Shown: in pieces, positions 13,787-59,169 of the stretch | Numbering within the stretch: the first letter of the stretch is position 1 | How the letters are laid out: each line of letters starts with the position of its first letter | DNA from: Collinsella sp. | GTDB taxonomy: Bacteria > Actinomycetota > Coriobacteriia > Coriobacteriales > Coriobacteriaceae | DNA: 64,000 nucleotides | Assembly (NCBI GenBank): GCA_036313175.1 | Contig: JAXJMO010000020.1 | Span: forward strand, 10,670 to 74,669 | Reading direction: 5' to 3' | Notes under the pieces: generated by a model | Told to the model about the DNA's origin: nothing | Seen by the model: the letters and a program-made list of their open reading frames with translations, nothing else | The model's database searches: none | Position numbers and translations under genes: made by a program

Positions 13787-13812
13787 CGCTAGTATAGGGA
13801 ACAACAGATTCG

Positions 13813-13904
13813 ATGCGGGAGTGCCGGCGGTGCAAACCACAAGGCTGAGAGGGCATGGGGCCCAATCCTTTGAACCTGTCAGTTAATGCTGGCGTAGGGA
13901 GCAT
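13813..13904 (+). promoter_or_regulatory. TPP (THI-box) riboswitch aptamer
   Basis: GGGAGTGCC...GGCTGAGAG...CCTTTGAACCTGTCAGTTAATGCTGGCGTAGGGAGCAT matches the conserved CTGAGA and ACCTGATCTGGATAATGCCAGCGTAGGGA cores. It lies upstream of thiM. Confidence 0.85.
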
Positions 13905-13916
13905 GCCGCCTTTACA

Positions 13917-13948
13917 GGGGCGCTGTCTATGCACAGCGCCCCTTTTCT
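13917..13948 (+). terminator. riboswitch expression-platform terminator
   Basis: GGGGCGCTGT (13917-13926) pairs with ACAGCGCCCC (13933-13942), followed by TTTTCT. It sits immediately before the thiM SD. Confidence 0.75.
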
Positions 13949-25744: not shown

Positions 25745-25779
25745 CAATGAGGCAAAGGGACTGTCCCTTTGCCTCATTG
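25745..25779. repeat. palindromic element family A, copy 2 (CAATGAGGCAAAGGGA-CTG-TCCCTTTGCCTCATTG)
   Basis: 16-bp perfect arms between the convergent ATPase and UvrA-like genes. Arm differences from the other copies are compensated in both arms. Confidence 0.8.
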
Positions 25780-29472: not shown

Positions 29473-29505
29473 CATGTGACAAAGGAACTGTCCCTTTGTC
29501 ACATG
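29473..29505. repeat. palindromic element family A, copy 3 (CATGTGACAAAGG-AACTGTC-CCTTTGTCACATG)
   Basis: Read directly. The right arm contains the stop codon (29499-29501, minus strand) of the TetM-like gene. Confidence 0.8.
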
Positions 29506-35266: not shown

Positions 35267-35327
35267 CTAGTCATTGGGGACGTTCTTGAATGACTAGTCG
35301 TTTAAGAACGTCCCCAACGGCTAGTCG
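35267..35327. repeat. palindromic element family C, copy 1 (CTAGTCATTGGGGACGTTCTT ... AAGAACGTCCCCAACGGCTAG)
   Basis: GGGGACGTTCTT (35276-35287) pairs with AAGAACGTCCCC (35304-35315), with a 16-nt loop GAATGACTAGTCGTTT. Located in the divergent rlmA/MATE intergenic region. Confidence 0.8.
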
Positions 35328-35388
35328 ATTAGGAGTATCATCGTCTGCGCAAATGAGCACGAAAGAGCATGTTAGAGATTGAGAGCGT

Positions 35389-41158: not shown

Positions 41159-42772
<1,614 letters not shown>

Positions 42773-42916
42773 GCGGATCCTTTCTTGCATTAAGTGCATT
42801 ACGTCGATGTAACCGTACTATTGTAGCCGCGAAATCTCGGCATAGGGCACCTATCAGGACAAATTCATCAGTTGGGGCCTAGGGTAGCAGTCGATGGCGA
42901 CACTCCGCAGCAGTTT

Positions 42917-43214
42917 GTCTCGATCTGTAACATCTAGACGGTTTTTGAACCTCTTCCTGTTACAGATTTAGACAAACAGGTGGACGTCCCAGAAAGATCT
43001 CGATCTGTAACATCTAGCCACTCAAAACGGGTCCATCTGTTACAGATTGAGATATAAGGATAGACGGGTGCCCAATGTCTCGATCTGTAACATCTAGCAG
43101 CCAAAATCTTCTCCAGTTGTTACAGATCGAGACAACCAGGTGGGGCCCGCCAGCAAAATCTCAATCTGTAACAGGTAGCCGTCCAAATCGGTTCCAGATG
43201 TTACAGATTGAGAT
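42917..43214 (+). repeat. phased array of four 57-nt inverted-repeat units (not CRISPR)
   Basis: Units lie at 42917-42973, 42997-43053, 43077-43133 and 43158-43214. The 16-nt arms are (G/A)TCTC(G/A)ATCTGTAACA and TGTTACAGAT(C/T)(G/T)AGA(C/T), flanking 25-nt variable centres, with 23-24-bp linkers. See findings. Confidence 0.85.
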
Positions 43215-43246
43215 GAATGAACGAGCGGACAATCCCTATTTGCCTC

Positions 43247-43297
43247 TTGCATAACTGTGCATAGTGTATATATACTGTGCTTACCGGTTATATACAC
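43247..43297 (+). promoter_or_regulatory. candidate promoter (TTGCAT-N16/17-TATATA) overlapping a GTGTATATA-N16-TATATACAC inverted repeat
   Basis: TTGCAT at 43247-43252 and an A/T-rich -10 at about 43269-43275. Perfect 9-bp arms at 43264-43272 and 43289-43297, 28 bp upstream of the GntR start. AGTGTA/TACAC half-sites resemble YtrA-type operators. Confidence 0.4.
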
Positions 43298-43324
43298 GTG
43301 TAGCCCATCAGCTAAGGAGCCGCT

Positions 43325-43705
43325 GTGGACATCATCCTATCCAATTCGAGCGACAAGCCCATCTACGAGCAGATAACCTCGCAGGTCAAAGCCCAAATCC
43401 TTTCGGGCACGCTCGCTGCGGGAGCCAAACTCCCCAGCATCCGTGCACTCGCGAGCGACCTTGGCGTGAGCGTCATCACCACCAAGCGCGCCTACGCCGA
43501 CCTGGAGCAACTCGGTTTTATCTGCACCGTGCAGGGCAAGGGCTGTTTTGTCGCCGAGGGCAACCAGGAGCTCTTGCGCGAAAACCAGCTCTGCCATATC
43601 GAAGAGCTACTTGCGAAAGCGGCAAGCCAAGCCGAAACCCTGGGCGTCACACGCGACAAGCTGCACGAGATGCTCGACCTGGTAGCCCCCGAAACCATGC
43701 AGTAG
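43325..43705 (+). CDS. GntR family transcriptional regulator, YtrA subfamily
   Basis: 126 aa. PIYEQITSQVKAQILSGTLAAGAKLPSIRALASDLGVSVITTKRAYADLE wHTH with a short C-terminal helical tail. GTG follows AAGGAG. Confidence 0.85.
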   Translation: MDIILSNSSDKPIYEQITSQVKAQILSGTLAAGAKLPSIRALASDLGVSVITTKRAYADLEQLGFICTVQGKGCFVAEGNQELLRENQLCHIEELLAKAASQAETLGVTRDKLHEMLDLVAPETMQ

Positions 43706-43728
43706 CCATCTGCAAGAAAGGCTATACC

Positions 43729-44610
43729 ATGCAGAACTTGCTAGAACTCAAAGGTATCTCACGCCGTGTGAGCGACCGCTTTTCACTACGCGATGTCACG
43801 CTCGCCGTGGAGCCCGGCCAGATTGTTGGCTTTGTGGGCGCAAACGGCGCCGGCAAAACAACGACGATTCGCGCCGCGCTTGGGCTTATAAAGCTCGATG
43901 CCGGCGAAGTGCACCTGTTTGGGCAGCACTGTGGCGCCGACGCGCCCGATGAAGCGCAGCGCTGCTTGCACACTCGTGTCGGCCTCGTGCTGGACACATG
44001 CCCCTTCCCTTCCACACTCAAGGTGACCGAAGTTGAGGCACTCGTAAGCCCGGCGTACCCCGCCTGGAGCCATGGCGCCTTCGCCGACCTCCTCAGCCAA
44101 TTTGGCCTCGATCCCAAGGCAAAGGTCAAGGACCTTTCCCGCGGCATGGGCATGAAGCTGCAGCTTGCCTGCGCGCTCAGCCACCAGGCCAAGCTGCTCG
44201 TTTTGGACGAAGCCACCGCGGGGCTTGATCCCATGGCACGCGAGGAGCTGCTTGATGAGCTGCTTGCCTTTGTCGCCGACGGCCAGCACAGCGTGCTGCT
44301 CTCGAGCCACATTACGTCTGACCTCGATCGCGCCGCCGACCGCGTCATCTGCATCGATAATGGCTCGATTATTTTTGACCTGCCGCGCGAGGACATTACC
44401 GACCGCGCCGGCATCGCCCACTGTACCCAAGCACAGGCCGCCGAGCTTATGGCTTGCGTCGAAGGCGCCCGTGCCGTCCACCACGCCTATAGCGTGGACG
44501 TGCTCGTGCCCAACCGTCGCGAAACGCTCGAGGCCTTTCCCGAGATTCCCTGCGATCGGGCAACCATTGATGACTATCTGCGCCTCATGCTGAAAGGGGC
44601 TTCGAAATGA
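43729..44610 (+). CDS. ABC transporter ATP-binding protein
   Basis: GANGAGKTT Walker A, LSRGMGMKLQL signature-like motif, LLVLDEATAGLD Walker B. The ATG at 43729 was chosen because the track ORF start at 43264 overlaps the GntR gene. Confidence 0.85.
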   Translation: MQNLLELKGISRRVSDRFSLRDVTLAVEPGQIVGFVGANGAGKTTTIRAALGLIKLDAGEVHLFGQHCGADAPDEAQRCLHTRVGLVLDTCPFPSTLKVTEVEALVSPAYPAWSHGAFADLLSQFGLDPKAKVKDLSRGMGMKLQLACALSHQAKLLVLDEATAGLDPMAREELLDELLAFVADGQHSVLLSSHITSDLDRAADRVICIDNGSIIFDLPREDITDRAGIAHCTQAQAAELMACVEGARAVHHAYSVDVLVPNRRETLEAFPEIPCDRATIDDYLRLMLKGASK

Positions 44611-45305
44611 AACGCGCCTTTATGTCCGAGCTCGCCATCGTTCGCACGCTCACCCCGAGCATCGCGGGCGTCGGCCTGTTCATCTTCGTCGTGCTAACCC
44701 TTGCCAACGCGTCGGATGGCGATTCCGGCATGAGCGCCGGCGCCTGCGCGGTCAGCGCCATGTCGCCCATCATGGTCATGAACTCGCTGGCCGGCTTCGA
44801 CAATCAAAACGGATGGGGGCGTTATCGGGCAACGCTGCCTCTCACGCGCAAAGACATTATTTGCGCACGCTACCTGAGCATCATTGTCTTCTCGGCTGTC
44901 ATGGCGTGCGCCGCCGCGCTTCTGAGCATCGTCTCCATCCCGCTATTCAACAGCGTGGGCATCCCCTCGACGGGACAGACGGTCTTTGAGATCGCTATAG
45001 CCTCGGCAGCATCGATGCTCATCTCCCTCATGATGGTGTTTTTGGCACAGCCGCTGTTCTTCCGATTTGGACACATGGAGGCACTGCGCCTATCCGTCGG
45101 CCTGTTTGCCCTGCTCTGGTGCCTTGCCATTGCCACGTTGAGCTCCTCCAACCCCATCAGCAACTGGCTCATGTCGATTGCCGGAGCGAATCCCGATCCC
45201 GCCGTCCTTGGCTGTCTGTGTGCAGGAATTGCAGTACTGGCGCTCGCACTATGTGCAATCAGCTGCACCGTCAGCACCAAGGTTTATCGAGTACGCGATC
45301 TGTAG
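44607..45305 (+). CDS. ABC-2 type transporter permease-like membrane protein
   Basis: ATGA overlap with the ATPase gene. 232 aa with about 6 TM segments. Confidence 0.65.
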   Translation: MKRAFMSELAIVRTLTPSIAGVGLFIFVVLTLANASDGDSGMSAGACAVSAMSPIMVMNSLAGFDNQNGWGRYRATLPLTRKDIICARYLSIIVFSAVMACAAALLSIVSIPLFNSVGIPSTGQTVFEIAIASAASMLISLMMVFLAQPLFFRFGHMEALRLSVGLFALLWCLAIATLSSSNPISNWLMSIAGANPDPAVLGCLCAGIAVLALALCAISCTVSTKVYRVRDL

Positions 45306-47819: not shown

Positions 47820-47889
47820 CGCGACCCCTTTTCCCAGACGCCCAATCACGTTCGCTCGGTATTGTCCCACGCCTCCCCCGCAAACGAAA

Positions 47890-47972
47890 CTAGTCATTGG
47901 GGACGTTCTTAAATGACTAGTCAAACAAGAACGTCCCCAATGACTAGTCGTTTAAGAACGTCCCCAATGACT
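47890..47972. repeat. palindromic element family C, copy 2 (one left arm, two right arms)
   Basis: GGGGACGTTCTT at 47899-47910, and AAGAACGTCCCC at both 47927-47938 and 47954-47965. With the CTAGTCATT/AATGACTAG flanks the stem reaches 21 bp. Located in the divergent K-channel/kinase intergenic region. Confidence 0.8.
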
Positions 47973-58106: not shown

Positions 58107-58167
58107 TAGTCATCGGGGACGTTCTTAAATGCCTAGTCGCTAAAGAACGTCCCCGATGTCTAACTAG
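58107..58167. repeat. palindromic element family C, copy 3
   Basis: ATCGGGGACGTTCTT (58112-58126) pairs with AAGAACGTCCCCGAT (58143-58157). Relative to copies 1 and 2, the T-to-C change in one arm is matched by an A-to-G change in the other. It overlaps the dus stop region. Confidence 0.8.
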
Positions 58168-59136: not shown

Positions 59137-59169
59137 AATGTGACAAAGGGACCGTCCCTTTGTCACATT
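59137..59169. repeat. palindromic element family A, copy 4 (AATGTGACAAAGG-GACCGTC-CCTTTGTCACATT)
   Basis: Read directly. It lies between the small ORF downstream of mgtA and the dus start. Confidence 0.8.

Follow-up and report, generated by a model that had tools for sequence, protein, structure and literature searches.

In E. coli and other enterobacteria, BIME-2 arrays, as described by Gilson and by Bachellier, are built of alternating REPs joined by linker motifs that are themselves conserved in sequence. The MIRUs of mycobacteria repeat a conserved unit directly and in tandem, and small ORFs often lie inside them. CRISPR arrays consist of direct repeats of 23–55 nt separated by unique spacers, and are accompanied by a leader and cas genes. 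The REP itself is defined as a 20–40-bp stem-loop with a 5–13-bp stem, a 2–20-nt loop and an unpaired GTAG or CGTC at one end; REPs are found mainly downstream of genes, in tandem or convergent arrangement, and avoid divergent intergenic regions, and a survey in 2013 reported no GTAG or CGTC REPs in Actinobacteria (PMC3733652).

Here we describe an array of inverted repeats in a 64-kb stretch of Collinsella DNA (the window), in which it lies between prfC and the gene for a GntR-family regulator, and we compare it with these known classes. Members of Collinsella, a very diverse genus, are abundant in the human gut. We found that the array is probably one locus of a high-copy, genus-restricted, BIME/MITE-like interspersed repeat of Collinsella, whose unit number would change by unequal recombination. 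The repeat family appears to be undescribed, and full-text literature searches returned no description of it.

Results

The left neighbour of the array is prfC, encoding peptide chain release factor RF3 (41159–42772, − strand), which is transcribed away from the array, and the right neighbour is the gene for the GntR-family regulator (43325–43705, + strand); both are outside the element. The regulator gene is followed by genes for an ABC ATPase (43702–44610) and an ABC-2 permease (44607–45305). The array itself contains eight copies of RTCTCRATCTGTAACA in alternating orientation, which make up four 57-bp units (42917–43214). Eight copies of one 15–16-nt motif, strictly alternating in orientation and about 40 bp apart, is the simplest description of it. 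The initial annotation had placed the units at 42917–42973, 42997–43053, 43077–43133 and 43158–43214, with start-to-start distances of 80, 80 and 81 bp, and had assigned to each unit two 16-nt arms around a 25-nt centre, with linkers of 23–24 nt; our sequence reading and a repeat finder returned the same geometry.

The left arms lie on the + strand and the right arms on the − strand, and all eight are supported by sequence reading, the repeat finder and a motif count. In unit 1 they are GTCTCGATCTGTAACA (42917–42932) and, read on the + strand, TGTTACAGATTTAGAC (42958–42973). Unit 2 has ATCTCGATCTGTAACA as its left arm (42997–43012) and its right arm at 43038–43053, unit 3 has arms at 43077–43092 and 43118–43133, and unit 4 has ATCTCAATCTGTAACA on the left (43158–43173) and a right arm at 43199–43214. 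Arm complementarity is 94–100% in units 2–4 according to the repeat finder, and by inspection it extends to 14 of the 16 positions in unit 1. The 25-nt centre of unit 1 (42933–42957, no strand assigned) has a T-tract, and the family consensus for the centre is nn-TAG-n6-AAA-n6-CTA-nn; because of this T-tract, unit 1 is inverted relative to units 2–4.

Searched with up to three mismatches, the 15-mer TCTCGATCTGTAACA matches the window nine times against 0.85 expected, a number that none of 100 shuffles reached. Eight of the nine matches belong to the array, and the ninth, at 35370, is isolated and has two mismatches. Tandem Repeats Finder did not detect the array, to which it is blind because only the arms are conserved and the filler is not. 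Our scan of 42700–43400 found no ORF, in agreement with the first reading, and neither a terminator-like site nor a promoter-like consensus is present in this interval. Rfam 15 gave no family at the gathering threshold for the array, and in E-value mode it returned only matches to miRNA precursors, at 17–36 bits versus thresholds of 72–245; such sub-threshold matches are noise that any long hairpin attracts.

The GntR operon has its conserved promoter/operator stretch, ttgcataactgtgcataGTGTATATATACtgtgcttaccGGTTATATACAC (43247–43300, + strand), to the right of the array and outside the element. The arms had been said to differ from the palindrome in this stretch, and we found the two sequences to be unrelated. 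The segment that is present or absent as a whole between strains extends from 42889 to 43229 (no strand assigned), and includes 28 nt of outer flank on the left of the array and 15 nt on the right. The array adds ~340 bp between two divergent promoter regions.

We scanned a one-genome-per-species collection with the pattern ATCTGTAACA-N21–29-TGTTACAGAT and took the 8 kb around matches as loci. At least 120 loci were recovered, essentially all of them Collinsella by title and including C. aerofaciens isolates; the others among the matches listed are unnamed bins and one bin labelled Acutalibacteraceae, the flanks of which match Collinsella loci. With up to three mismatches allowed, these at least 120 loci and the window together contain 143 arrays of 2–16 half-sites (1–8 units), the commonest sizes being 4, 6 and 8 half-sites. 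The start-to-start distance between arms is 40 across the centre in 350 of 353 cases, corresponding to a 25-nt centre, and 40 or 41 across the linker in 224 of 234 cases, corresponding to a linker of 23 or 24 nt.

Clustering of the flanks resolved 31 genomic contexts among the matches listed, each common to up to nine or more species. Several of these clusters are the same or paralogous loci, and ~25–30 unrelated intergenic sites remain. The neighbouring genes are functionally unrelated: they include RF3, GntR/ABC, a 12-TM protein resembling a Mn transporter, a phosphoglycerate-mutase-like protein, a Ser/Thr kinase, PTS, GH1, LacI and DeoR proteins, an AAA ATPase and oxidoreductases. Both neighbours could be called for 115 arrays, of which 36 have divergent, 36 convergent and 43 tandem flanking genes; these orientations are approximate calls from a codon-usage caller trained on the same sequences. 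The family favours neither promoter nor terminator regions. An enrichment beside regulators and sugar loci was rejected: GH1, PTS, LacI and DeoR recur, but about 8 of the 31 contexts is not clearly above expectation. These contexts are in part paralogous duplications. From the one array in the 64-kb window and 23 secondary arrays in ~0.9 Mb of loci, we roughly estimate 35–60 arrays per 2.3-Mb genome. Several arrays are located at contig ends (e.g. L008, L024, L053 and L059).

A metagenome scan with the GntR protein gave 80 human-gut loci in which this protein is 94–99% identical. For length measurement we used two anchors, one at the prfC start region and one at the GntR promoter palindrome; the right anchor is a part of the 43247–43300 stretch and is present in 76 of the 80 loci, array or no array. 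In all, 69 loci could be scored. The site is empty in 33 of the 69, with 135–137 bp between the anchors and no half-site. The remaining loci have 1, 2, 3 or 4 units, with 246, ~310, 391 and 470–489 bp between the anchors, respectively. The filled sites fall into at least four alleles, which differ in their outer flanks and centres; the window carries type A. We identified in-register deletion derivatives that retain U1 and U4 (L164), U1 and U2 (L033), U1, U3 and U4 (L147) or U1, U2 and U3 (L212), as well as one recombinant, L146, with the left side of type A and the right side of type B. Flank identity does not sort loci with the array from loci without it.

The empty allele reads ...gggtagc, cggcc, caatcc..., and type A reads ...gggtagc, 28 nt, the array, 15 nt, caatcc.... 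The filled alleles swap out ~5–27 nt of the empty allele (~5 nt in type A) and are not clean insertions. No clear direct repeat indicative of a target-site duplication was found at the junctions between empty and filled sequence in the alleles compared at this site. Import of whole arrays together with their outer flanks from other loci was also considered and rejected, as the outer flanks of alleles A–D occur only at the prfC/GntR locus.

These comparisons bear directly on what the array might do for its neighbours. The initial annotation had raised the possibility of a phased multi-operator, which in its general form would serve the YtrA-like GntR regulator or another local factor and control prfC and/or the ABC operon. 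In its favour, the array has divergent genes on its two sides, and ~30 bp separate its end from the conserved GntR promoter stretch downstream. However, the same arms occur beside unrelated genes at ~25–30 sites, their sequence has no relation to the GntR promoter palindrome, and the 33 array-free relatives keep both the GntR gene and that palindrome, with the GTGTATATATAC...GGTTATATACAC stretch retained and the GntR protein 94–99% identical. We regard a multi-operator as very improbable. The array had also been suggested to encode structured RNAs transcribed toward the GntR/ABC operon, for which we found no support as a role of this locus. Locus-specific roles in general are rejected, because the unit is dispersed in unrelated, mixed contexts and the array is missing from 33 of 69 close relatives. 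The third of the early suggestions, a multimerised miniature element, fits best, since the unit is a common dispersed repeat of Collinsella found in unrelated contexts.

We next consider the relationship between the two arms of a unit, whose pairing had been thought to be maintained by paired substitutions. The variable pairs are 0/56, 4/52 and 5/51, and we found that they change independently. In 319 distinct units, their Watson-Crick counts are 166, 212 and 175 versus 171, 217 and 159 expected under independence, and G-T and A-C occur at these pairs with about equal frequency. De-replication to 144 non-orthologous units, in which any two centres differ by at least 7 nt, gave Watson-Crick counts of 70, 92 and 72 versus shuffle means of 76.3, 94.8 and 71.8. 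There is no excess over shuffles; one arm of a unit therefore varies without regard to the other, and the G-C/A-T pattern at the outermost pair of the four units in the window is a small-sample coincidence.

The proposal that the array is a duplicated ~160-bp two-hairpin module did not hold either. The centre identities follow no odd/even rule (9/25 for U1–U3, 16/25 for U2–U4, 15/25 for U2–U3 and 16/25 for U3–U4), and the U1 centre matches the reverse complement of the U4 centre at 15/25 positions. Linkers 1 and 3 (16/23) are not specially alike when set against linkers 1 and 2 (15/23), and a regular alternation of 80 and 81 spacings is absent across the arrays of the family.

The independence of the arms is also informative for the idea that the units are RNA hairpins, with a 16-bp stem and a 25-nt loop, that would stabilise 3′ ends, terminate transcription or be processed into small RNAs, as reported for REPs. 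The + strand of 42905–43225 folds at −141 kcal/mol (z = −12.4), and many arrays are located 9–140 nt past stop codons in convergent or tandem contexts and would be co-transcribed. The fold energy, however, follows trivially from the inverted repeats, and compensatory change is absent at every variable stem pair. Nor does the sense strand in tandem contexts have an excess of G-U over A-C, the counts being 11 v 31, 6 v 10, 23 v 29 and 20 v 4 at four positions. About one third of the arrays lie between divergent genes, among them the array in the window, which lies upstream of both conserved promoter regions, has neither a T-tract nor a terminator-like site and has no match in Rfam at the gathering threshold. 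In context C21, the flanking genes have terminator hairpins of their own. RNA hairpins are an improbable account of the family. Inversion of the centre, as in an inverton or by hairpin-loop inversion, was rejected as well: among unit pairs with matching flanks, 1130 centres have the same orientation and none is inverted.

When the units are oriented by their centres, the family consensus is WWT-RTCTCRATCTGTAACA-nn-TAG-n6-AAA(A)-n6-CTA-nn-TGTTACAGATYGAGAY-AWW, followed by a GC-rich linker. Across the family, every arm position except 0, 4 and 5 is at least 94% invariant. The filler mostly has 0.0–0.6 bit per position and the linkers have 0.0–0.3 bit apart from their WWW edges, and at the array ends nothing past WWT is conserved. 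The only asymmetry of the centre is its A-tract or T-tract, and the two orientations (203 v 144) are mixed within arrays. A palindromic centre was rejected, with 3.9 symmetric Watson-Crick pairs per centre versus 4.9 with a random partner; the symmetry apparent in a first position matrix arose because the two orientations of the A-tract/T-tract centre had been mixed.

Within three allele types, the values of pi are 0.012–0.052 for arms, 0.027–0.17 for centres and 0.037–0.16 for linkers. Arm diversity is 2–8x below that of centres, and it is below that of linkers too in each of the three types. Segregating columns number 27 of 384 in the arms versus 111 of 507 in centres and linkers in the same allele types. 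The low arm variation and the fixed centre length both suggest that a protein recognises the double-stranded DNA. The strong constraint on arms and spacing would also be compatible with a host-beneficial binding array.

Given that centre length is near-constant, that the arms vary independently and that exactly three arm positions are tolerant, each arm would appear to be an independent recognition site on double-stranded DNA, for which the spacing matters. AT-rich or TA steps are found repeatedly at unit positions −3 to −1, 18–19, 27–29, 37–38 and 57–59; together with the 40-bp arm spacing, these few positions seem to fall roughly in one 10-bp phase, and such a phase would suit bent or wrapped DNA.

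A further alternative is that the arrays are host-beneficial nucleoprotein sites, in which a DNA-architectural or topology protein would bind the arms and wrap or bend the DNA, and which would be kept for chromosome organisation and not as selfish elements. Comparable cases in E. coli are gyrase at BIME-2 and IHF at BIME-1. Such sites are supported by the constraint on the arms relative to the filler, a centre length fixed in 350 of 353 units, a linker that varies by only 1 nt, AT-rich or TA steps in what may be one rough 10-bp phase with arms 40 bp apart, a location in non-transcribed gaps (divergent promoters here, two terminator hairpins in context C21) and the absence of context bias. They are harder to reconcile with a single site that is dispensable, about half of the close relatives being array-free and unit number freely variable, or with a family found only in Collinsella among the matches listed; no candidate protein was found, and the 10-bp phasing rests on few positions. 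We consider host-beneficial sites a tentative and rather unlikely alternative to the interspersed repeat. The nucleoprotein scaffold suggested in the initial annotation survives in one respect, as a family-wide reading in which protein binds the arms, and it is not a property of the GntR/ABC operon.

Evidence on the spread of the interspersed repeat comes from the centres. Members of one centre sub-family, e.g. GTAACTCGGCAAAATCrGtCCCAGA, occur in contexts 8, 9, 21, 2 and 3, the flanks of which are dissimilar; some other cases of shared centres are explained by paralogous sugar-utilisation loci. Because identical or near-identical centres recur at loci without flank similarity, whole units appear to have been copied from site to site, through either transposition or ectopic conversion. 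We infer the transposition step and do not observe it directly, because there is no clear target-site duplication and ~5–27 nt are replaced. Simple MITE insertion does not account for a linker that is fixed at 23–24 nt but unconserved in sequence.

No mobilising gene was found in the array loci: a weak tblastn test with IS608 TnpA and E. coli RAYT sequences had no match at E<0.1 in the window or in 1.39 Mb of loci, and the array loci showed no IS-like gene with single arms at its ends. An ORF in context C0 has arrays on both sides and was considered as the cognate enzyme; it was rejected, having a sub-threshold DUF559 match only, and other genes are likewise flanked. The pattern has 13 matches in IMG/VR. 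Three of them are low-GC contigs that do not have the 40-bp arm spacing, two with a 38-bp pair and one with no arm match, and these three are probably chance matches. Chromosomal flanks in common with the genome loci are found in most of the others. In the C21 group, the integration junction is not in the array but ~85 bp away, on the far side of a terminator hairpin. A link to phages was rejected, the IMG/VR matches being low-GC contigs or, mostly, chromosomal flanks, and the C21 junction being outside the array.

Discussion

We propose that the repeated module of the family is the 16-nt arm RTCTCRATCTGTAACA, flanked by WWT and strictly alternating in orientation, with centre and GC-rich linker alternating between successive arms at a period of 80–81 bp. 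The arms would be double-stranded DNA recognition sites for a sequence-specific protein, either an enzyme that mobilises the repeat or a DNA-architectural protein. Units or arrays would be copied between loci as a non-autonomous element, arrays would grow and shrink via unequal homologous recombination between arms of the same orientation, and homologous recombination through the conserved flanks would shuffle arrays between strains. For prfC and the GntR/ABC operon, the array would most likely be a passenger with no dedicated regulatory role. The message for the prfC/GntR locus is a deflationary one, in that the array there is most likely dispensable.

A bolder possibility, which we judge to be unlikely, is a new phase-locked repeat system in which a Collinsella protein that is not a RAYT and not a classical IS transposase would recognise the 16-nt arms on double-stranded DNA and would either add new arms at a constant 24–25 bp from those already present or form a wrapped complex on the arrays. 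If true, such a system would explain the conserved arms, the fixed spacing and the free filler together, and it would give the Actinomycetota an independently arisen counterpart of the BIME.

The interspersed repeat also has practical implications. The family accounts for conspicuous intergenic palindromes that could be mistaken in annotation for operators, riboswitch-like RNAs or CRISPR-like arrays. Its presence or absence and its unit number are highly polymorphic markers for strain tracking in metagenomes, and the arrays mark likely breaks in short-read assemblies. The family further points to a putative sequence-specific DNA-binding or mobilising protein.

Compared with the REP, the 16-nt arm of Collinsella is not self-complementary, and the 57-nt unit read as a hairpin would have a 16-bp stem and a 25-nt loop, both beyond the REP limits. 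The REP tag is absent from the arm: the outer ends are WWT-RTCTC, and TAG is confined to the centre, with a G before it in ~13% of units. The location is also unlike that of REPs, with 36 of 115 arrays between divergent genes.

The resemblance to BIME-2 is closer. Both have a short motif in strictly alternating orientation, with two kinds of constant-length interval that alternate, and both are extragenic, high-copy and taxonomically restricted, with a variable unit number (up to ~8–12) that differs between strains. BIMEs, however, are built from REPs, which the Collinsella arms are not, and their linker motifs (L, S, l, r) are conserved in sequence, whereas the Collinsella linkers are conserved in length only.

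Like REPINs, the Collinsella units have two inverted short conserved sequences around a spacer, occur as singlets, doublets and clusters, persist at orthologous sites and fall into sequence sub-families within the population (PMC3116915, PMC3337134). Unlike REPINs, they lack symmetric changes that preserve the hairpin, in the 144 de-replicated as in the 319 distinct units, their spacer is largely unconserved and their host phylum is Actinomycetota. In addition, a flanking Y1-transposase gene of the REPIN/RAYT kind was not found near the arrays in the weak tblastn test.

With MITEs, the family shares terminal inverted repeats of 16–19 bp, a non-coding nature, intergenic dispersal and presence or absence between close strains, and the internal sequence of its units recurs at unrelated loci. 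The 57-bp unit would nevertheless stand at the extreme small end of the MITE size range. The outer flanks of the array show the WWT edge only and no target-site duplication, and no parent IS with matching ends was found in the 8-kb array loci. The units are also phase-locked by a fixed 23–24-nt gap, and independent insertions would not give such arrays.

An actinobacterial host, an intergenic location, units of 40–100 bp and copy numbers that differ at orthologous loci are reminiscent of MIRU-type VNTRs, and such copy-number differences between strains could therefore be of use in typing. In the Collinsella family, unlike in MIRUs, conservation is limited to the alternating arms, and no array is reported by Tandem Repeats Finder. 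A CRISPR array was rejected, given that the 16-nt repeats alternate in orientation and that the 'spacers' contain the conserved TAG/AAA/CTA and recur at unrelated loci.

The Collinsella family is set apart from these classes because its arm is not a stem-loop, it has no tag, no symmetric changes and no target-site duplication, and no RAYT was found. Its architecture is closest to that of a BIME-2-type REP array, and its behaviour resembles that of REPINs and MITEs. We therefore class the family as a variant of the 'interspersed extragenic palindromic repeat', in a phylum in which the 2013 survey reported none (PMC3733652), and one with an unusual design of conserved arms, fixed spacing and free filler.

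Genomic settings of the arrays

Arrays are frequent where contigs of short-read assemblies terminate, a pattern suggesting that the arrays cause assembly breaks. In L008, L024, L051, L053, L059, L113, and L115, the array reaches the locus or contig end or comes within about 100 bp of it. Several arrays are sited in paralogous sugar-utilisation loci (L017, L018, L021, L040, L065, and others), falling into contexts 6, 14, 16, 20, 24, and 30, where a context is a cluster of similar flank sequences. These loci encode a GH1 6-phospho-beta-glucosidase, a PTS EIIC component, and regulators of the LacI or DeoR family. The units common to different loci stem in part from duplication of such paralogous loci.

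To the right of the window array, the promoter/operator stretch of the GntR operon (window 43247–43300) contains an inverted repeat, GTGTATATATAC...GGTTATATACAC. The stretch is kept in related loci with or without an array, and the part of it that served as the right anchor of the locus comparison is present in 76 of the 80 loci. It is likely the true operator of the YtrA-like regulator.

Other elements in the window

The genome of the window carries several intergenic palindrome families that are mutually unrelated. A second dispersed family, of about 58–60 bp and the form ACTAGTCATTGGGGACGTTCTT...AAGAACGTCCCCAATGACTAGT, has three copies in the window (47889–47948, 35267–35324, and 58107–58162). 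A third family consists of near-perfect palindromes of 33–35 bp, reading CA(A/T)TG(A/T)G(G/A)CAAAGGGAC followed by GTCCCTTTG..., at 25745–25779, 59137–59169, and 29473–29505. A lone arm-like 16-mer lies on the minus strand at 35370–35385 (TGTTAGAGATTGAGAG on the plus strand), with two mismatches in the 15-nt core and an ATG 6 nt downstream. This site, which lacks a second arm to pair with, is either a relic or a chance match. The sole Rfam match at the gathering score across the whole window is a TPP riboswitch (13807–13917, plus strand; 55.9 bits).

Neighbouring and enclosed genes

In context C21 (L121:1044–1130, L130:447–535, L128:5790–5877, and L126:7560–7650), an integrated prophage-like element encoding a tyrosine-recombinase-like C-terminus adjoins the array. 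The integration junction, which follows ...cttaatactgccaca, is about 85 bp away, immediately past a terminator hairpin. The attachment site is not the array itself.

Some arrays enclose genes. An ORF of 364–378 aa, whose codon usage is atypical, has arrays of one to five units on either side in at least nine species (L103:3774–4868, plus strand, and L019:904–2040, minus strand, a context also found in L013, L041, L054, L056, L072, L076, and L088). Searches of Pfam and NCBIfam with this ORF returned nothing significant, the only domain signal being a sub-threshold C-terminal DUF559 (E = 0.05). The ORF may have a connection with the repeats, or it may be a passenger. Two arrays also enclose a P-loop ATPase of the AAA_16/ATPase_2 type (L043:2623–3729, plus strand; L035:4860–5843, minus strand), which shows weak BrxC/D-like and anti-phage-like matches.
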